From Streptomyces virus LukeCage (lineage: Duplodnaviria; Heunggongvirae; Uroviricota; Caudoviricetes): a stretch of DNA of 64,000 bases. The stretch is from positions 59,119 through 123,118 of IMG/VR virus record IMGVR_UViG_2974629454_000001; one strand, given 5' to 3'. The notes beneath the pieces are model-generated. The model made no database searches, was not told where the DNA came from, and was given only the letters and a program-made list of their open reading frames with translations. Both the position numbers and the translations under genes were made by a program. Positions 14,741 through 59,152 of the stretch are shown piece by piece (positions within the stretch are counted from its first letter, which is position 1; each line of letters begins with the position of its first letter).

Positions 14741-15262
14741 ATGACGGTACTTCTTAGGACTATCCACGGAAGCCATCTATATGGCCTCGCTCACAAAGGC
14801 TCTGACAAGGACATTTACGAAGTAATTGCAACCAGTCGAACCAAGCGTAAGCGAAACATTAAGCAAACCATTGTGAATGGTGTTGACAAGACGACGGTAG
14901 ATATGTCAACATTTATGAATATGGTTGATGAATGCGTACCTCAAGCACTTGAAGCGCTATGGACGCCGGTCGCTGAGATCGATAAGATCCACGAATTCCG
15001 GACTCAATATCGAGTGAATCGCGCCAAGATGAAGGAAGTATACATTCGAACCGCTCTAAACTTCGCTAAAAATGATGGAGTAAAGCAGAGGCGACACGCT
15101 ATCCGCCTGCTTCTCAATCTCGGCGCAGCTTTGGAATACGGAAAGTTTAACCCTCAGCTCTCCAACATGGACAAGTTCATTCTTGAATCTTCTATGGGCG
15201 AGACTGGAGCATATGAGGATGTCTTCCTAGGCGTTCTCGATGAAGTACAAAAGTGGGTCTGA
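14741..15262 (+). CDS. nucleotidyltransferase-fold protein (MNT-like)
   Basis: HGSHLYGLAHKGSDKD fits the GS...DxD motif. Confidence 0.55.
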   Translation: MTVLLRTIHGSHLYGLAHKGSDKDIYEVIATSRTKRKRNIKQTIVNGVDKTTVDMSTFMNMVDECVPQALEALWTPVAEIDKIHEFRTQYRVNRAKMKEVYIRTALNFAKNDGVKQRRHAIRLLLNLGAALEYGKFNPQLSNMDKFILESSMGETGAYEDVFLGVLDEVQKWV

Positions 15263-17470: not shown

Positions 17471-17544
17471 GCGCCTGTAGCATATGTGGTTGATGCGCCA
17501 GTCTTATAAACTGGAGAAAGCGGGTTCAAATCCCGCCAGGCGTA
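17471..17544 (+). tRNA. tRNA-Ile(UAU)
   Basis: Acceptor gcgcctg/caggcgt (G1-U72); anticodon arm ccagt-cttataa-actgg; T arm gcgggttcaaatcccgc. Confidence 0.7.
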
Positions 17545-21253: not shown

Positions 21254-21255
21254 CT

Positions 21256-21330
21256 TTTGGGTCGAATGACTATCGGTTATCTGTCTATGAAACAGACCGA
21301 AACACGGTTCGAATCCGTGGATTGCTTTGG
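21256..21330 (+). ncRNA. tRNA-like module (candidate Y-RNA-like) with canonical T arm and anticodon-like hairpin but no pairing acceptor
   Basis: gggtcgaatgactatcggttatc ... gtct-atgaaac-agac ... cacggttcgaatccgtg. Confidence 0.4.
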
Positions 21331-21374
21331 CGCTAGGTTTACGGTCGATGTCAACAACTTACCCATACAACTTA

Positions 21375-21807: not shown

Positions 21808-21843
21808 AACTAAATGCCCTACGAGGGCCGGAAAGGAAACAAA

Positions 21844-23472
21844 ATGTCCAACGCACTAACTAATGCCGCAAAGGCAACCAACAAGACTTCTCAGAAGCTG
21901 CCAGCAAAGGCAGGACAGGTCAAGAACAACGCTGGTGGATTCGTCTTCCAGGTTTCTGATCAGTCACGCCTTGAGCGCTTTCTGATTCTTGGAACCGATG
22001 GAGGAACGTATTACGTTTCTGAGGTTAACCACACTCAGTCAAACGTAACCTTCCTCAACGAGATGATTGAGCGAGACGAAGCCTCTGTACTGAACACAAT
22101 TGTTGATGTATCTGTCAATGGTCGTGCGTACAAGCAGTCTCCTGCCCTGTTCGCTCTAGCCTCTGTCATTGTCAACGGCAAGGATAAGCAGGCGGTCAAG
22201 GCGGTATTCAACAGGGTCGTAAGGACTGCTACTCACCTCTACGAGGTGGTTAACTACCTTAACGAGCTTGGTGGATGGGGTCGCGCAAAGCGAGAGATCG
22301 TAGCTGGCTGGTTCGACAAGGACGCTGATAAGCTTGCTTATCAGGCTGTCAAGTATCGTTCCCGCACGTTCGGTGGAAACACCTGGACGCTACGAGACGT
22401 AATGCGAAAGGCTCACCCACAGAACGTCAACACGTCTGTTGCTGATTTCGTCCTTGGCAAGGAGCACGCGGCTGTAGATGACCTCCGGGTTATCGAGGGC
22501 TTCAAGCTTATGCAGAAGGCGGAGTCTGTAGAGGCTGTTCACGCAGTTCTGCGGGATTACGAGATGCTTAGCTGGGAGACTATTCCAACGCAGTTCCTCA
22601 CGGATGCTAGCGTTTGGAAGCGACTCTTTGCTAATGGTCAGCTTCGTGGTCAGGCTGCTGTTCGAAACATCACTCGCCTCGCGCGTATTGGTGCTTTCAA
22701 GGACATGCGGTTCGCTGCGAACTTTGCTAGCCAGCTAGCGAATGAGGAAATGATTCGTCAGTCTCGACTGCACCCAATTAACTTCCTTAACGCTGCCGTT
22801 GTTTACGCAGAAGGCCAGGTGGATCGAAAGAACATCTGGGGCGGACGTGTAAAGAACTGGGAGACTGAGGCCGTTATTGTCGATGCAATCGATGAGGCGT
22901 TCCACAAGTCATTCAAGACCATTGAGCCAGCCGGTAAGAGGACGATGCTAGCCATCGACTGTTCCGGTTCAATGAGCACACAGGCTATGGGTCTCGACCT
23001 AAGCTGTGCGCAGGTTGCTGGTGCTATGGCAATGACCATTGCTCGTACTGAGCCAGCTCACATCATCCGTGGTTTCTCTTCACAGGGATACAACTGGCGT
23101 GATAGCGGTATGGCTGAACTAAAGATTACTGGTCGCAGCTCTCTTGCTCAGGCAATGAGTGCAATGCGTGCGGTAAACTGGGGAGGCACAGACTGCTCAC
23201 TGCCAATGACGTGGGCTCTTGAGAATGGTGTGGAAGTTGACACCTTCGTTGTTATCACTGATAACGAGACGTGGGCTGGCAAGATTCACCCATTCCAGGC
23301 TCTCAAGAACTATCGTAAGAGCACAGGTATTGATGCACGACTTGCTGTTCTAGGAGTCGCTTCAACTCCATTCACTATTGCTGATAGTTCCGACCGAGGG
23401 ATGATGGATTTCGTAGGGTTCGACAGCAATGCACCTCGTGTGCTCGCTGACTTCTCTGCGGGTCGCATCTGA
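21844..23472 (+). CDS. rsr: Ro60/Rsr orthologue (TROVE domain + C-terminal vWA)
   Basis: N-terminal RLERFLILGTDGGTYYVSE is the Ro60 signature; C-terminal metal-ion-dependent adhesion site (MIDAS) IDCSGSMS and VVITDNETWAG; length is typical of Ro60. Confidence 0.8.
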   Translation: MSNALTNAAKATNKTSQKLPAKAGQVKNNAGGFVFQVSDQSRLERFLILGTDGGTYYVSEVNHTQSNVTFLNEMIERDEASVLNTIVDVSVNGRAYKQSPALFALASVIVNGKDKQAVKAVFNRVVRTATHLYEVVNYLNELGGWGRAKREIVAGWFDKDADKLAYQAVKYRSRTFGGNTWTLRDVMRKAHPQNVNTSVADFVLGKEHAAVDDLRVIEGFKLMQKAESVEAVHAVLRDYEMLSWETIPTQFLTDASVWKRLFANGQLRGQAAVRNITRLARIGAFKDMRFAANFASQLANEEMIRQSRLHPINFLNAAVVYAEGQVDRKNIWGGRVKNWETEAVIVDAIDEAFHKSFKTIEPAGKRTMLAIDCSGSMSTQAMGLDLSCAQVAGAMAMTIARTEPAHIIRGFSSQGYNWRDSGMAELKITGRSSLAQAMSAMRAVNWGGTDCSLPMTWALENGVEVDTFVVITDNETWAGKIHPFQALKNYRKSTGIDARLAVLGVASTPFTIADSSDRGMMDFVGFDSNAPRVLADFSAGRI

Positions 23473-28068: not shown

Positions 28069-28164
28069 GGAGAATTAAAAGTTCCGAAAAGTTGGTCACT
28101 CAGTAGGAACGTTTTACATGTGGGTCTAACCAGCCCGGTGCCGGGGTCGAATCCGGATTCTCCG
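28069..28164 (+). other. over-long (96 nt) tRNA-like gene, isotype unresolved
   Basis: Perfect 7-bp acceptor ggagaat/attctcc; T-like ccgg-ggtcgaat-ccgg; internal stem gttcc...ggaac encloses 19 nt. Confidence 0.35.
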
Positions 28165-28172
28165 TTAAGTTT

Positions 28173-28250
28173 GGGTCTGACAGGTGTGACGTTACTGAAA
28201 GCCGACAATGGACCGGTAACGGATAGTGGGTTCGACTCCCACCAGATCCA
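28173..28250 (+). other. tRNA-like gene (78 nt), internal arms unresolved
   Basis: Acceptor gggtctg/cagatcc; T arm gtgggttcgactcccac. Confidence 0.35.
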
Positions 28251-28271: not shown

Positions 28272-28345
28272 GCGCTCGTAGCCCAACGGCAGGAGGCACA
28301 AGGCTTAGACCCTTGGTAGTGTCGGTTCGAATCCGACCGGGCGTA
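28272..28345 (+). tRNA. class I tRNA with anticodon UAG (leucine codon CUA) but a short variable loop
   Basis: Acceptor gcgctcg/cgggcgt (G1-U72, A73); anticodon arm caagg-cttagac-ccttg; variable gtagt; T arm gtcggttcgaatccgac. Confidence 0.6.
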
Positions 28346-28358
28346 CGTAAGAATTGAT

Positions 28359-28439
28359 GGGCTCGTGGTGGAATGGTATACACGTTAGTCTTAGGAACTA
28401 ATGCCGAAAGGATTGTGAGTTCGAGTCTCACCGGGCCTA
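28359..28439 (+). tRNA. tRNA-Leu(UAG), class II
   Basis: Acceptor gggctcg/cgggcct; anticodon arm ttagt-cttagga-actaa; 12-13 nt variable arm; T arm gtgagttcgagtctcac. Confidence 0.65.
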
Positions 28440-28493
28440 CTTTGATGGTAAACGCGATATCATCAAATGCATATCAGGTCGCTCCTGATATGA

Positions 28494-28619
28494 GGAGTGT
28501 AGTTTAATTGGCAAAACCGCGAAATGCAATGTCGAACGGGAAGTGCTGCTGAGCTAAAGGCAGGTCTTACCTTAGTAGATATCAGAGTAGCAGTTGCGGG
28601 TTCGAGTCCCGTCACTCCG
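28494..28619 (+). other. 126-nt tRNA-like RNA: acceptor + D arm + T arm with about 50 nt inserted between the D and T regions
   Basis: ggagtg...cactcc acceptor; D arm gttt-aattggca-aaac; T arm gcgggttcgagtcccgt; two hairpins upstream (28441-28491). Confidence 0.3.
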
Positions 28620-28759
28620 CTAGCCTGAGATGACGATCCGATGTAGGTCCCCTAGGGCTTGCGCAGGCCCGAAGGGCATTCGGGAAAGGTGCCTAGCTAG
28701 GTCCGTCTACCAATAAGGTGAGAGTTTTTCACGGTTTTCCTCATAATTAAACCGTGTTT

Positions 28760-28832
28760 GGTCCTTTGGCAGAGATGGTAATGCACTCGGTTGAAGCCCG
28801 AGATATCTCAGTTCGATTCTGAGGGGGACCAC
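28760..28832 (+). tRNA. tRNA-Phe(GAA)
   Basis: Acceptor ggtcctt/ggggacc; loop ttgaagc; T arm ctcagttcgattctgag. Confidence 0.6.
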
Positions 28833-36419: not shown

Positions 36420-36501
36420 GCATGAGCGGCGAAGTTGGAGAGACGCGGTGGTCTGTAAAACCATTCCTTCGGGTGAGTCAGTTCGAATCTGACCTCATGC
36501 A
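36420..36501 (+). tRNA. tRNA-Tyr(GUA), class II
   Basis: Perfect acceptor gcatgag/ctcatgc; loop ctgtaaa; long variable arm; T arm gtcagttcgaatctgac. Confidence 0.7.
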
Positions 36502-36557: not shown

Positions 36558-36629
36558 GCATGTAAGCCAGGGATAAGCTAGGCGGGCCTGTAAAGCCCTA
36601 CCTTGTTGGTTCGAATCCAACTACATGCA
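36558..36629 (+). tRNA. class I tRNA with anticodon GUA (Tyr-decoding) and no long variable arm
   Basis: Acceptor gcatgta/tacatgc; anticodon arm gggc-ctgtaaa-gccc; T arm gttggttcgaatccaac. Confidence 0.5.
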
Positions 36630-36631
36630 CT

Positions 36632-36704
36632 GTGACGTAAGCCGAGCGGTTAAGGCACTTGGTTGTGACCCAAGGTTTGGCGGGTTCGACTCCCGTACGT
36701 CACC
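36632..36704 (+). tRNA. tRNA-His(GUG), no encoded G-1, C73
   Basis: Acceptor gtgacgt/acgtcac; anticodon arm cttgg-ttgtgac-ccaag; T arm gcgggttcgactcccgt. Confidence 0.7.
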
Positions 36705-38270: not shown

Positions 38271-38420
38271 ATGTGTGAAATCGAACGGTGGGAAAGTGAG
38301 GGAGGAAAGGCAACAAAGATTCCCTGCATTTTTCACGGAAAAGAATACAAACAACACGACTTCTACTACGGAGATCAATGTCGTAGATGTGGAGTCTGGA
38401 AAGATGAGGAACAAGATTGA
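38271..38420 (+). CDS. small Zn-ribbon protein (49 aa)
   Basis: C...C...CxxC; its stop overlaps the next start. Confidence 0.35.
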   Translation: MCEIERWESEGGKATKIPCIFHGKEYKQHDFYYGDQCRRCGVWKDEEQD

Positions 38421-38974
38421 AGATCTTTTATGACACTGAATTTTATGAAACTGGACCGGAAGAGCCTGTTAGGTTCATCAGTCTAGGAGCGGTGCGCGAG
38501 GATGGTGAGAGGCTGTATCTGATCACCAATAACCTCTACGTGCTCAACAGAGCAAATGAGAATGAGTGGATGAGGGAGAACGTCATCGCCCATTTGCCAG
38601 TAAAGCAGACGGCCACTGGAAGCCTCGCATGGGACACTCAGCATCCTGACTATGCAAGGGTGCTACCGAACGAAGCGATTGCTGGATTGTGGAGAGACTT
38701 CGTTTTGGACTACGATGAGGCACATGAGTTTGACAAGCCTGAGCTGTGGGCATACTATGGAGCCTATGACCATGTGGTTGTCAGCCAACTCTTTGGACGT
38801 ATGATTGACTTGCCAGATGGCATGCCAATGTATACGATGGATCTAAAGCAGCGGTGGCACAATGAGGGAAGACCTCCACTACCAAAGCAGGATGGCGGAG
38901 AGCACAACGCCCTTGACGATGCACTGTGGAATAAGATAGTATCAGAATATCTAGACGCCTACGGCGAGAGGTAA
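38417..38974 (+). CDS. DEDDh 3'-5' exonuclease (DnaQ/RNase T-like), TTG start
   Basis: N-terminal FYDTEFYETG matches exonuclease motif I (Exo I); C-terminal HNALDDALW matches exonuclease motif III (Exo III, H..D). Confidence 0.7.
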   Translation: MKIFYDTEFYETGPEEPVRFISLGAVREDGERLYLITNNLYVLNRANENEWMRENVIAHLPVKQTATGSLAWDTQHPDYARVLPNEAIAGLWRDFVLDYDEAHEFDKPELWAYYGAYDHVVVSQLFGRMIDLPDGMPMYTMDLKQRWHNEGRPPLPKQDGGEHNALDDALWNKIVSEYLDAYGER

Positions 38975-39563: not shown

Positions 39564-39841
39564 GGGGATGCCTTGGTTTCGACTGGGGTGGATGACTTTA
39601 GTTTGCAGCCTGACATTGAGGAGATGTCATTAAAAAGCCTCAAACCTATAAATGCCAACTCTAACGTTGCATCTGCCTACGCCCTAGCGGCGTGATGGCC
39701 GGGCGGCAACTGCCTAGGAACAGAAAGTTGCGAATGTTTGGCCCGGTGGGGATAAACACACGCAGTATCTGCTTGACACATGGCTGTGTATAGACTACTG
39801 TTTGAAGCATCAGGACGCGGGTTCGACTCCCGCCATCTCCA
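39564..39841 (+). ncRNA. ssrA: tmRNA (SsrA), compact about 278-nt form; tag peptide ANSNVASAYALAA
   Basis: The 5' end ggggatgccttggtttcgactgggg and the 3' end ggacgcgggttcgactcccgccatctcc align with the E. coli tmRNA termini. The acceptor ggggatg/catctcc carries G3-U70. The tag ORF gcc...tga at 39664-39705 ends in YALAA. Confidence 0.85.
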
Positions 39842-39854
39842 CTTAAGGATCAAA

Positions 39855-43678: not shown

Positions 43679-44755
43679 ATGAAGTTCACCAAGATCTTCT
43701 CACAGGAGTTGCTTGACGAGATGATCTCAGAGGGCTATGTCCGGGCGCAGTTTCATCCGGTCCTGCCTCTCAAGATTCTCAACTACTCTGAGAAGACTCA
43801 GTTCGCTGGAAAGTGGAACGACTGCACGCTTAACTGTCGTGGGTTGATCGTTGATCTCGACGGCAACTTGATTGCTCGTCCTTTCATGAAGTTCTTCAAC
43901 TTGGGTGATTCTCAGTCCGCACAACTTGACTGGGACGCTCCGGTTGAGGTTACGGACAAGAAGGACGGATCAATGGGAGTCCTGTACTCCTATGGTGGTC
44001 AGTTGGCGATTGCTACTCGTGGATCATTCATGTCAGATCAGGCAATCCACGGTACTCGTATTCTTAACGAGCGCTACAGCCACATTCAGTTCGTCTCAGA
44101 CTACACATTTATCTTCGAGATCGTTTACCCTGAGAACAGGATTGTTCTGGACTACGGTTCAATGGACGACCTGATTCTTCTGGGTGCGGTTCACAAGGAA
44201 TACGGTTACGTTTGTGGTCCTCTGGAGGCTCAGGCAATTGTAGATTGGGACGGGCCGGTGACGGAGGTCTTCAATTACAGCTCATTGCGTGAGGCGTCTG
44301 GAGCGCAGTACAGGAAGAACGCAGAGGGTTTCGTAGTCCGCTCTGGCAACAAGATGGTCAAGATCAAGCAGGCAGATTACGTTGAGCTGCACCGCATGAT
44401 CTCCATGCTTTCAGAGCGTTCCGTATGGAGTCAGCTTACCGAGGGCAAGACGATTCTTGAGATTTGTGAGGCACTGCCTGACGAGTTCCACGGATTTGTC
44501 AAGGACGTTGGTGGCAAGCTCCTTGAGGACTACGAGCGCATTGAGGTTGAGGTTTATGGTATCTACCAGAACCTTCTAACTTCTCTGGGCGAGGGCTTCA
44601 CGCGACGTGATTTCGCAATGGCTGCAAACCGAATTGATCTCTACAGGTCTCACATGTTCAACCTGCTTGACGGGAAGAGCATCAATGAGCTAATCTGGAA
44701 GCAGATCAGGCCGGAAGCCAAGCGAGAGGACGTACACCCTACCAATGCGGGCTAA
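43679..44755 (+). CDS. ATP-dependent RNA ligase, Rnl2-like nucleotidyltransferase
   Basis: Motif I TDKKDGSMG (KxDG), motif IV NAEGFVVRS (EGFVV) and motif V MVKIKQADY; Shine-Dalgarno GGAGGA. Confidence 0.7.
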   Translation: MKFTKIFSQELLDEMISEGYVRAQFHPVLPLKILNYSEKTQFAGKWNDCTLNCRGLIVDLDGNLIARPFMKFFNLGDSQSAQLDWDAPVEVTDKKDGSMGVLYSYGGQLAIATRGSFMSDQAIHGTRILNERYSHIQFVSDYTFIFEIVYPENRIVLDYGSMDDLILLGAVHKEYGYVCGPLEAQAIVDWDGPVTEVFNYSSLREASGAQYRKNAEGFVVRSGNKMVKIKQADYVELHRMISMLSERSVWSQLTEGKTILEICEALPDEFHGFVKDVGGKLLEDYERIEVEVYGIYQNLLTSLGEGFTRRDFAMAANRIDLYRSHMFNLLDGKSINELIWKQIRPEAKREDVHPTNAG

Positions 44756-45503: not shown

Positions 45504-46400
45504 GTGAAGATGCAGCTTCTCATCCTCCGGGGAATTCCCGGTTGTGGTAAGAGCACTTGGGCGCATGATGTGTGGCTCAAGGAAAACCCGAATGGTGTTC
45601 GAGTCAATCGTGATGACATTCGTATGCAGCTCTTTGGCCGGGAGACCGGAGTAGACGAGGAGCTTGTTACTCGAATTGAGCACGGAATGGTGGATGGGGC
45701 TCTGTCAAAGGGCTACTCTGTCGTTGTCGATGACACGAACATTCGACACAAGTACATCAAGGAATTCGTCAAGATCGGTCAGCGCCATGGTGCTAGTGTT
45801 TCAGTTAAGCAGTTTGACGTTTCACTTGAGACGGCAATTCAGCGAAACACTGTTCGTGCTGCACTCGGTGGTCGAGACGTTCCTGAGTCTGTCATTCGCA
45901 AGATGCACCAGTCCATGAAGTCTAGTGGAGTTTTCACTGACTTCCACACAAGCGTTACGGCTGTTCGTCCTTACGATCGTCCCGAAGGTGCAGAGAAGGT
46001 TTACCTCTTTGACATTGATGGCACGCTTGCTGAGATGAACACTCGTGATCCTTTCTACTGGAAGGGTGTTGGCGAGGACGATCCGCGACGACAGGTGATC
46101 ATCACTGCTCAGGCTCATGCTAAGGCAGGATACAAGATCATCGTTATGAGCGGTCGAGATGGCTCATGCCGCAATGAAACAATCGCTTGGCTGGAACTCT
46201 ACGACATTCCTTTCTCAGAATTGCACATGCGTGCTGAGGGGGACATGCGTAAGGACTCTGTCGTCAAGCAAGAGCTGTTCGATGAGCACATTCGTGACAT
46301 CTATGATGTTGTGGCTGTGTACGATGATCGTCAGCAGGTTGTTGACATGTGGCGTGCGATGGGCATAGACTGTTTCCAGGTAGCACCCGGAAACTTCTGA
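45504..46400 (+). CDS. polynucleotide 5'-kinase/3'-phosphatase (T4 Pnk-like)
   Basis: N-terminal P-loop GIPGCGKST; C-terminal HAD motifs VYLFDIDGTLAE, IIVMSGRD and AVYDDRQQ. Confidence 0.8.
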   Translation: MKMQLLILRGIPGCGKSTWAHDVWLKENPNGVRVNRDDIRMQLFGRETGVDEELVTRIEHGMVDGALSKGYSVVVDDTNIRHKYIKEFVKIGQRHGASVSVKQFDVSLETAIQRNTVRAALGGRDVPESVIRKMHQSMKSSGVFTDFHTSVTAVRPYDRPEGAEKVYLFDIDGTLAEMNTRDPFYWKGVGEDDPRRQVIITAQAHAKAGYKIIVMSGRDGSCRNETIAWLELYDIPFSELHMRAEGDMRKDSVVKQELFDEHIRDIYDVVAVYDDRQQVVDMWRAMGIDCFQVAPGNF

Positions 46401-47917: not shown

Positions 47918-47999
47918 GCGCCCATGGTGGAATGGCAGACACACTAGGCTGAGACCCTAGGCTCGAATGAGCGTCCGAGTTCGATTCTCGGTGGGCGTA
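47918..47999 (+). tRNA. tRNA-Leu(GAG), class II
   Basis: Acceptor gcgccca/tgggcgt; anticodon arm ctagg-ctgagac-cctag; variable-arm hairpin gctc-gaat-gagc; T arm ccgagttcgattctcgg. Confidence 0.7.
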
Positions 48000-49599: not shown

Positions 49600-49673
49600 G
49601 GCCCTGTAGCAGAATGGTATATGCGGCGGTCTCAAAAACCGCGTCAATGTGGGTTCGAGTCCCATCAGGGCTA
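49600..49673 (+). tRNA. class I tRNA with anticodon CAA (leucine codon UUG), short variable loop
   Basis: Acceptor ggccctg/cagggct (G1-U72, A73); perfect anticodon arm gcggt-ctcaaaa-accgc; T arm gtgggttcgagtcccat. Confidence 0.55.
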
Positions 49674-49674
49674 C

Positions 49675-58774: not shown

Positions 58775-59152
58775 TCAGCGGCCTTTGCCGTACCTTGACA
58801 GATAATCTGCACGAGAGTATGGTTTAACCATGAACGTTTACATAGCACAGGTAATTGGTTTGATTCTGGGCGTTGTCGGAGTGATTATAGGTCACTACTC
58901 ATATGAGTTGACAAGCCGTATAACTGATTCGAAGGGGATGATCATATGACGTGTGCTGCGTGTGGTGGTGAGTGCGACGAAACTATTTGTTTCGAAACAT
59001 TTGGCGACAAGATGAGACGGTTCTTCTTCTGTAGTATCTCACATCGTGCCGCCTGGTTCTTCGGATGGATGGTATGAGAATTATTTTAATAGGAGGGGTC
59101 ATAGTATGGCTCCTTCTTATTCTTTTTATTTGTAGGTGGTTCTACGTAATCA

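Follow-up and report, generated by a model that had tools for sequence, protein, structure and literature searches.

Which amino acid is delivered by a bacteriophage transfer RNA (tRNA) that bears a leucine or tyrosine anticodon on a body lacking the long variable arm? This question is raised by Streptomyces virus LukeCage (MH590597.1, cluster BE, Karimacvirus), from which a stretch of 64,000 nucleotides (nt), in the following termed the window, was analyzed (window position 1 corresponds to position 59119 of the record). A preliminary description had pointed out three such genes, with the anticodons UAG (28272), CAA (49600) and GUA (36558, here named TyrI), and had offered noncanonical isoacceptors, identity-switched tRNAs and decoys as explanations. 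Its premise that bacterial tRNA-Leu is class II fails for the host group: Streptomyces coelicolor possesses a type I tRNA-Leu(CAA) that is leucylated (PMC6614811), and type I UAG genes occur in Actinomycetota. Because Streptomyces and other Actinomycetota carry type I genes natively, a class I tRNA-Leu is host-like and not anomalous. It is, in our estimate, quite probable that the two leucine genes are type I isoacceptors of the kind found in Actinomycetota and that the GUA tRNA is most likely a tyrosine acceptor without a long arm. None of the three genes is a chance match: related phages have retained all of them, and their stems show compensatory changes. The genes concerned and the class II genes that accompany them are the following:

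28272..28345, + strand: type I (short variable loop) tRNA-Leu(UAG) of the GCCCAAYNGGCAGGAGGC D-arm family (ARAGORN, Rfam, segmentation)
28359..28439, + strand: class II tRNA-Leu(UAG) with a 13-nt variable region (ARAGORN, Rfam, segmentation)
36420..36501, + strand: class II tRNA-Tyr(GUA) with a 12-nt variable region, 55 nt upstream of TyrI (ARAGORN, segmentation)
36558..36629, + strand: arm-less GUA-anticodon tRNA, TyrI (Rfam, 35.3 bits, E 1.1e-3; tRNA-Tyr in GenBank)
47918..47999, + strand: class II tRNA-Leu(GAG) with a 14-nt variable region (ARAGORN, segmentation)
49600..49673, + strand: class I tRNA-Leu(CAA) of a second lineage with a 6-nt variable loop (ARAGORN, Rfam, segmentation)

Two leucine tRNA genes with short variable loops

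For both short-armed leucine genes, segmentation agrees with the preliminary description in the Leu anticodons UAG and CAA, variable loops of 5-6 nt, perfect anticodon stems and A73, and ARAGORN assigns the same anticodons. The class II Leu(UAG) and Leu(GAG) genes are likewise present as described, with variable regions of 13 and 14 nt. ARAGORN places tRNA-Leu(tag) at 28272-28346, and the Rfam tRNA score of 54.7 bits lies above the gathering threshold of 29 bits. The 74-nt molecule is composed of a 7-bp acceptor stem GCGCUCG/CGGGCGU, U8 A9, the D arm GCC-C-AACGGCAGG-A-GGC, A26, a perfect 5-bp anticodon stem CAAGG/CCUUG with the loop CUUAGAC, the 5-nt variable loop GUAGU, the T arm GUCGG-UUCGAAU-CCGAC and A73. 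The second gene, tRNA-Leu(caa) at 49600-49674 according to ARAGORN, reaches 58.9 bits with the same Rfam model and threshold; it also comprises 74 nt and has perfect stems, the loop CUCAAAA, the variable loop GUCAAU and A73.

Such molecules have a precedent in the host genus. Four of the five tRNA-Leu isoacceptors of S. coelicolor are type II, while tRNA-Leu(CAA) is type I with the variable loop A44 C45 A46 G47 C48, and both kinds are leucylated by a single leucyl-tRNA synthetase (LeuRS), ScoLeuRS, with kcat/Km values of 6.25 (type I) and 14.2 s-1 uM-1 (type II) (Fan, Huang, Ji & Wang 2019, NAR 47:6369; PMC6614811). For this enzyme U8-A14 is an identity element, A73 is not important, the anticodon is ignored and a variable loop of at least 5 nt, position 48 included, is required; furthermore, tRNA-Leu(UAA) stays chargeable after the loss of all base pairs of its long arm (PMC6614811). 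Both LukeCage genes possess U8 and A14, and their variable loops amount to 5 nt (28272) and 6 nt (49600). They share with the S. coelicolor tRNA a leucine anticodon on a class I body with U8-A14 and the host genus, 28272 also the 5-nt variable loop, and in S. coelicolor, too, type I coexists with class II leucine isoacceptors in one cell with a single LeuRS. They differ in being virus-encoded and in carrying UAG as well as CAA, and 49600 furthermore in its 6-nt loop and another D arm. Homology of the phage genes to the S. coelicolor gene is suggested by the variable loop and the family described below. Judged from their sequences, 28272 and 49600 are new phage-borne members of this known kind of tRNA-Leu and ordinary given the biology of the host.

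Phages are not mentioned by Fan et al. (PMC6614811), and a review of tRNA identity from 2023 states that tRNA-Leu keeps the long arm everywhere but in animal mitochondria (PMC9976931), so type I tRNA-Leu is little known. Class I tRNA-Leu and tRNA-Tyr of animal mitochondria lack the long arm and are served by synthetases of the bacterial type (PMC9976931). No evolutionary link connects them with the phage genes, which differ in their fully canonical T loops (UUCGAAU) and in a base composition that is not mitochondrial.

A type I tRNA-Leu family in bacteria and phages

The D-arm motif of 28272, TAGCCCAA-N(1-3)-GGCAGGAGGC, was scanned over one genome per bacterial species and occurs at at least 120 loci. 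It lies within a tRNA of 74-79 nt at at least 114 of these (114 of 120 among the matches listed, to which the counts in this section refer), and every one of the 114 has a leucine anticodon: tag in 76 cases, cag in 19, caa in 10, gag in seven, and taa and aag in one each. The discriminator was scored as A in 95 of 100 distinct sequences, the five scored as T including off-register segmentations, and the variable loop is usually ACAGU (60). A single scaffold with anticodons spread across all six leucine boxes and confined to them is expected of a synthetase that recognizes the tRNA body irrespective of the anticodon. In an alignment of 93 bacterial members 99.4% of the positions in stems are paired, with 519 double-change cells; pairing drops to about 40% in a control in which the partner was slid by one to three columns.

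A covariance model, R1, was built solely from these 93 bacterial type I tRNA-Leu sequences. In the window it gives 84.0 bits for 28272, followed by tRNA-Ile(UAU) (17471-17544) with 53.6 bits and 49600 with 49.5 bits. Among further phage genes scored, the Leu(CAG) gene of mycobacteriophage Roots515 reaches 93.7 bits, Leu(TAG) of DyoEdafos 77 bits, Streptomyces phage WRightOn 73 bits and an Acinetobacter phage Leu(UAA) 66 bits. The scaffold of the family (U8 A9, a 3-bp D stem GCC/GGC, D loop CAAYNGGCAGGA, A26, variable loop NCAGU, A73) is found in 28272, which also has the leucine anticodon on a body of 74-79 nt with a 5-nt variable loop; 49600 has the corresponding length of 74 nt and a 6-nt loop. 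Among the orthologues of 28272, that is the R1-type genes of phages, compensatory changes affect 13 pairs and pairing is 100%. A BLAST search against phage records returned 183 records, 86 of them from Mycobacterium phages, and every match listed is annotated as tRNA-Leu.

The bacterial members occur in two settings. At 69 of the 120 loci the tRNA is solitary within 8 kb; arrays of 10-30 tRNAs are found at further loci. In the solitary UAG genes the upstream neighbor is conserved, and synteny extends across genera (Micromonospora, Streptomyces, Streptomonospora, Sphaerisporangium, Asanoa, Marmoricola, Actinomycetospora). In Streptomyces sp. YU58 (locus L041, 4186-4260) the type I tRNA-Leu(UAG) resides within about 2 kb of genes for RNase PH (rph), Ham1/RdgB and AhpC/Bcp and is directly adjoined by an open reading frame (ORF) with an HNH domain; this site is a housekeeping locus. 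The syntenic chromosomal position is found in YU58 and about 68 other loci (within L016-L135), many of them in Actinomycetota. For S. coelicolor only CAA is given as type I and UAG as type II; compared with this account, native type I tRNA-Leu seems to be more widely distributed and to differ more from species to species.

Arrays of 10-30 tRNA genes within 8 kb (e.g. L040, L046, L050, L053) are present in Acidobacteriota, Myxococcota, Actinomycetota, Alphaproteobacteria and others. Class I outnumbers class II among the leucine genes of the 120 loci by 167 to 10, mainly in arrays, while tRNA-Ser (26 class II, one doubtful 71-nt call) and tRNA-Tyr (14 class II) keep the long arm at the same loci. 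A tRNA-Leu(TAG) with a short variable loop has been mentioned in passing for a mycobacterial tRNA cluster (Behra et al., 2019; PMC6582537). This cluster of Mycobacterium mucogenicum/phocaicum resembles the situation in LukeCage in that the array gene with the short loop exists beside a chromosomal class II copy, and interspersed HNH endonuclease genes are common to the bacterial arrays and the BE phages. Unlike the LukeCage island, the bacterial arrays are chromosomal or located on mobile elements, not in a lytic phage, and they are devoid of an arm-less tRNA-Tyr.

Type I tRNA-Leu is thus a large family and not a one-gene oddity of S. coelicolor. Its settings comprise chromosomal UAG genes in Actinomycetota, tRNA arrays in several phyla and phages of Streptomyces, Mycobacterium, Gordonia and Acinetobacter, and annotators as well as users of isotype models on phage tRNAs should expect it.

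The leucine loci in BE phages

Nine BE phages and IMG/VR contigs were compared at the leucine loci. A pattern scan of IMG/VR yielded only three contigs, so this collection appears to hold few of these phages. All nine phages have a first UAG gene of class I size (75-76 nt). It is of the 28272 type, designated type A, in LukeCage, Wofford, Bmoc, Daubenski, Riptide and LilMartin, and a different class I sequence, type C, in Mildred21 and Jay2Jay. As for the second UAG gene, LukeCage, Mildred21, Bmoc and two metagenomic contigs have a class II form of 80-83 nt. Its place is taken by a 75-nt gene of the R1 family with the variable loop ACAGU, type B, in Jay2Jay, Daubenski, Riptide and LilMartin, and by yet another class I form, type D, in Wofford, which also has a 74-nt Leu(UAA) gene. 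Type A and type B genes from seven BE phages score 79-89 bits with R1. The 5-nt loops are accordingly ACAGU in type B and in the family consensus, ACAGC in S. coelicolor and GUAGU in 28272. The anticodon arm of type B, CCAGU-CUUAGGA-ACUGG, recurs in the class II gene of an IMG/VR contig (locus L005), and in Jay2Jay and Daubenski type B shares its T arm, GUGAG-UUCGAGU-CUCAC, with LukeCage's class II gene. One locus can thus hold either architecture, with modules passing between the two, which argues for the same job. The Leu(GAG) gene (47918) is class II (83 nt) in all nine phages.

The CAA gene has a history of its own. The D arm of 49600 is of the class II leucine type, with a 3-bp stem, G13.A22 and the loop AAUGGUAU: it reads GCA-G-AAUGGUAU-A-UGC, compared to GUG-G-AAUGGUAU-A-CAC in the class II Leu(UAG) gene of the phage. 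The gene looks like a class II-type leucine core with a trimmed arm, and molecules of this kind remain chargeable by ScoLeuRS (Fan et al., 2019; PMC6614811). With R1 the 49.5 bits of 49600, third in the window, lie within the spread of unrelated tRNAs, and its D arm GCAGAAUGGUAUAUGC departs from the R1 scaffold. Orthologues are present in 80 Streptomyces phage records, and the lineage is confined to BE phages. ARAGORN finds the gene class I-sized (75-78 nt) with variable loops of 6-7 nt in all nine sampled phages; compensatory changes affect eight pairs including all five of the anticodon stem, and 98.6% of the pairs are maintained. The gene at 49600 represents a separate arm-less leucine lineage outside the R1 family that probably works like a type I tRNA-Leu.

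Leucine codon usage and proposed decoding

Streptomyces hosts have a G+C content of about 72%; that of the window is about 47-50%. In 118 ORFs of the window CUA occurs 15.9 times per 1000 (20% of the leucine codons) and UUG 9.8 times per 1000 (12%), which is the heavy use that the preliminary description had suggested looking for. The codons CUA, UUG and CUU/CUC are rare in Streptomyces, CUA with less than 1 per 1000 in S. coelicolor. The leucine anticodons of the window, UAG twice, GAG and CAA, cover codons that are heavily used by the phage and rare in Streptomyces. Genome-wide, S. coelicolor contains only 6706 UUG codons (PMC6614811). Family membership, covariation in the helices and the heavy use of CUA and UUG together lead us to regard 28272 and 49600 as genuine type I isoacceptors.

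The phage (about 49% G+C) would in this manner supply its own decoders, for CUA via UAG, for UUG via CAA and for CUU/CUC via GAG. The genes would be transcribed within the tRNA island, and the transcripts would undergo end-processing and addition of CCA, which is not encoded. The tRNAs from 28272 and 49600 would then be charged with leucine by the host LeuRS, an enzyme that in Streptomyces should be blind to the anticodon and able to dispense with the long arm and would depend on U8-A14 and on 5 or more nt in the variable loop.

A wobble pair G1.U72 at the first acceptor position together with A73 is present in 12 of 43 tRNAs of the window (17471, 27224, 27849, 27992, 28272, 28359, 28981, 29820, 33798, 35862, 47918 and 49600), and CCA is encoded by none of these genes. 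The pair is kept in 10 of 11 and seven of seven orthologues of the leucine genes. As a leucine-specific mark, however, the combination is ruled out, its 12 carriers belonging to many isotypes.

The arm-less GUA tRNA

The preliminary description had also reported a class I GUA gene beside a class II tRNA-Tyr. This gene, TyrI, exists, is conserved and has a short variable loop, although it is weaker and less canonical than it had been presented. ARAGORN makes no call at 36558-36629; the Rfam score of 35.3 bits exceeds the gathering threshold of 29 bits. TyrI possesses G1-C72, A73, the loop CUGUAAA, a 5-nt variable loop, A8 and a 4-bp anticodon stem complemented by an invariant C.U apposition, and in its D region AGCCAGGGAUAAGCUAGG G18G19 are not in the usual register. 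Base pairs 1-5 of the acceptor stem are common to TyrI and the class II tRNA-Tyr at 36420. In the minimum-free-energy fold one nucleotide separates the acceptor and D stems and the D helix is stacked on the 4-bp anticodon stem; this possible fold, with its 1-nt acceptor/D gap and shifted junction of D and anticodon helices, presumably recalls mitochondrial tRNA-Ser(UCN).

TyrI is found in 88 Streptomyces phage records with 89-100% identity and is unannotated in about half of the records listed. The conserved block extends from the first nucleotide of the tRNA to one nucleotide past A73 (C74 is conserved), while the flanks are mostly unalignable between the phage groups compared and some phages share an identical upstream spacer. 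Sixteen distinct variants were collected from phages, IMG/VR and soil metagenomes. Their acceptor stems (GCAUGUA, GGUUGCG, GGUUACG, GGGUUCG, GGCGUCG, GCCUGUG and others), T stems (GUUGG, GAUGG, GGAGG, GGGAG, CUGGG and others) and the four varying pairs of the anticodon stem (GGGC, GGGU, GGAG, GUGG) differ considerably, and all stem changes are compensatory, with double changes in nine of 16 pairs and 100% pairing. Invariant are G1-C72, A73, the loop CUGUAAA, C26, U42 and the core of the D region, GCCAGGGAYAAGCUAGGC; a single variant deviates from A at position 8.

Class I tRNA-Tyr of archaea and eukaryotes carries C1-G72, and TyrI, always having G1-C72, does not belong there. The bacterial tyrosine determinants G1-C72, A73 and U35 (PMC9976931), the last within the GUA anticodon, occur in all 16 variants. 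On the other hand, TyrI lacks the long arm and the U8, A14, G18G19 core of canonical bacterial tRNA-Tyr, and it is not filed there because of its 5-nt variable loop, A8 and the absence of G18G19 in register. Its conservation, the compensatory changes and the invariant tyrosine marks indicate that TyrI is a functional, selected and structured RNA with a tRNA fold and bacterial tyrosine marks, and it is most likely a tyrosine acceptor without a long arm that would take part in translation. LilMartin and Daubenski retain TyrI, and a class II tRNA-Tyr was not found in these two phages within the regions of 21-22 kb examined. Scans of phages, IMG/VR and metagenomes for relatives gave only phages of the BE/BK type and matching soil contigs (bacterial chromosomes were not scanned), and we found no description of an arm-less bacterial-type tRNA-Tyr such as TyrI in the literature. 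If TyrI is tyrosylated, a bacterial tyrosyl-tRNA synthetase (TyrRS) can work without the long arm, and the gene would allow the idea that phages lose tRNA features read by host defenses to be tested directly.

At its downstream end (36630-36640, + strand) only 2 nt separate TyrI from a tRNA-His gene. This tRNA-His can form an 8-bp acceptor helix (G-1:C73); position 8 would then also be A, and the D region AGCCGAGCGGUUAAGGC would resemble that of TyrI.

Alternative explanations

Several observations weigh against tRNA-Leu and tRNA-Tyr function of the three genes. Bacterial TyrRS contacts the long arm, which TyrI does not have, and without U8, A14 and canonical G18G19 and with an anticodon stem of 4 bp TyrI may be charged poorly or not at all. 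The gene at 49600 scores at background with R1, its leucine identity resting on the type of the D arm, the anticodon, the exclusion of other synthetases and what Fan et al. (2019) found with mutants. Even for 28272 the R1 test is partly circular as regards the share of the D arm in the score, because it was a motif of this very gene that served to collect the family; neither the remainder of the molecule nor the anticodon statistics are affected. Finally, type I tRNA-Leu is not charged by LeuRS from E. coli or S. purpurogeneiscleroticus; the enzyme from S. azureus does charge it, and the capacity varies between Streptomyces species (PMC6614811).

An identity switch, in which a class I tRNA such as Val UAC, Phe GAA or Met CAU gained a leucine or tyrosine anticodon and now inserts the wrong amino acid, is very improbable. 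It is true that UAG is one change away from the neighboring Val UAC and CAA one change from Phe GAA, that 49600 and the tRNA-Phe at 28760 agree in 16 of 19 positions of the D region and that identity-switched tRNAs have been documented in other genomes by tRNAscan-SE 2.0. However, the closest tRNAs in the window share only 8-10 of 14 acceptor and 1-7 of 10 anticodon-stem positions with the genes in question, and the at least 114 bacterial genes of the 28272 family have leucine anticodons only (among the matches listed). Comparison of the three genes with all 42 other tRNAs of the window over the D region, acceptor, T arm and anticodon stem revealed no close parent, and Phe GAA was dismissed as the source of 49600 as the likeness in the D arm stops short of the rest of the molecule. 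In addition, the synthetases for Val, Ile, Met and Phe depend on the anticodon, that for Ala needs G3.U70, which is absent from 28272 and 49600, and that for Ser needs the long arm and G73 (PMC9976931). Missense incorporation throughout the proteome at 20% of the leucine codons would be heavily counter-selected, and the genes are conserved in at least 80 phages. It is even harder to believe that the three are decaying pseudogenes, i.e. duplicated tRNA genes that fell out of use upon deletion of the arm. Degenerate tRNA-like remnants do exist in the island (28172-28250, 21255-21340, 28493-28620; see below), and TyrI scores low with general tRNA models; yet all three genes are conserved well above their flanks in blocks that run from the first nucleotide to about one past the discriminator, and changes are strictly compensatory with 98.6-100% pairing.

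A role in defense could hold alongside ordinary decoding and is most relevant to TyrI. As a full explanation, the proposal that the arm-less tRNAs are spare parts or decoys resistant to toxins that recognize or cut the long arm of class II tRNAs, so that translation is kept up or the toxin soaked up, appears unlikely. We know of no Streptomyces defense that targets the arm of tRNA-Leu or tRNA-Tyr. From other organisms, PtuAB (Septu, retron-Eco7) cleaves tRNA-Tyr in the variable loop, which T5 tRNA-Tyr reportedly resists by means of a distinctive loop (PMC13096335, PMC11555353), and the M. tuberculosis toxin MenT3 picks tRNA-Ser by its long variable loop (PMC11162799). The tRNA island of LukeCage encodes an exoribonuclease and a homologue of Ro60 in addition to the candidate repair pair formed by Rnl1 and PNKP; its Leu(UAG) genes of type I and class II are direct neighbors, and TyrI adjoins the class II tRNA-Tyr and is kept where the class II copy was not found. 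Together, PtuAB, MenT3 and the repair genes of the island make escape from defense plausible for TyrI. The leucine genes need no such pressure, since the host phylum uses type I natively, with genes at housekeeping loci, and a pure decoy would require neither anticodons confined to the leucine boxes nor a matching codon usage. Regarding the options of the preliminary description, family, covariation and codon use thus leave noncanonical isoacceptors for the leucine genes and speak against identity-switched tRNAs and decoys; TyrI may be an isoacceptor or a decoy. It is conceivable, if doubtful, that actinobacteriophages of the Stanwilliamsviridae keep arm-less tRNA-Tyr and tRNA-Leu that are invisible to abortive-infection toxins, be it PtuAB-like nucleases or MenT3/AbiEii-like nucleotidyltransferases, and that TyrI is a defense-proof isoacceptor charged by bacterial TyrRS. 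In that case it would be the first natural tRNA-Tyr of a bacterial system without a long arm. Like the phage tRNA-Tyr that escapes PtuAB, TyrI is a phage copy with a variable region unlike that of the host, located in a tRNA-rich region with homing endonuclease genes. The resemblance would be one of working principle only: the tRNA-Tyr of T5 and T6 keep the long arm, while TyrI has none and its D region is remodeled.

The surrounding tRNA island

ARAGORN finds 42 tRNA genes and a transfer-messenger RNA (tmRNA) in the window, every one on the + strand, and Rfam matches comprise 39 tRNAs and the tmRNA. Two protein genes in the island are candidates for a tRNA-repair pair:

43679..44755, + strand: T4-type RNA ligase 1 (Pfam RNA_lig_T4_1, E 7e-17)
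45504..46400, + strand: polynucleotide kinase-phosphatase (Pfam HAD_PNKP, E 2e-51; AAA_33, E 2.5e-25)

They belong to a set of RNA repair and quality-control genes scattered among the tRNAs (21814-23472, 38417-38974, 43679-44755, 45504-46400, 14741-15262) that, besides these two, includes a Ro60/TROVE homologue, an Rv2179c-like 3'-5' exoribonuclease and a weak match to an RlaP-like nucleotidyltransferase.

Several tRNA-like sequences accompany the intact genes. The one at 28493-28620 (+ strand; Rfam tRNA, 32.5 bits) has normal acceptor, D and T arms and 71 nt in place of an anticodon stem-loop of about 15 nt, which could be an intron or another element. It is about 70% identical to a Mildred21 gene annotated as a 107-nt 'tRNA-Tyr(gta)', and this identity indicates that the insertion-bearing form is conserved. 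Between tRNA-Val and tRNA-Leu, a remnant without a D arm (28172-28250, + strand) retains an 8-bp acceptor-like stem, a second stem of 8 bp that closes a loop of 17 nt, and a T arm of canonical form, GUGGG-UUCGACU-CCCAC; another T-arm-like stretch is located at about 28135-28160. A degenerate sequence directly follows tRNA-Asp (21255-21340, + strand). Its counterpart in place and look in Mildred21 (locus L007, 15252-15323) is annotated as a 72-nt 'tRNA-Ser(tga)' and gives no BLAST alignment to 21255-21340. Class I tRNA-Ser was considered as a third arm-less family of class II origin and rejected, both sequences folding poorly and that of LukeCage being degenerate.

The tRNA-Ile at 17471-17544 (+ strand) has its UAU anticodon encoded in the genome and would decode AUA directly without lysidine. 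The phage-encoded tmRNA (39564-39844, + strand; Rfam, 93.1 bits) specifies the tag peptide ANSNVASAYALAA, and the tag differs in relatives, where it reads ANSKFAFALAA.

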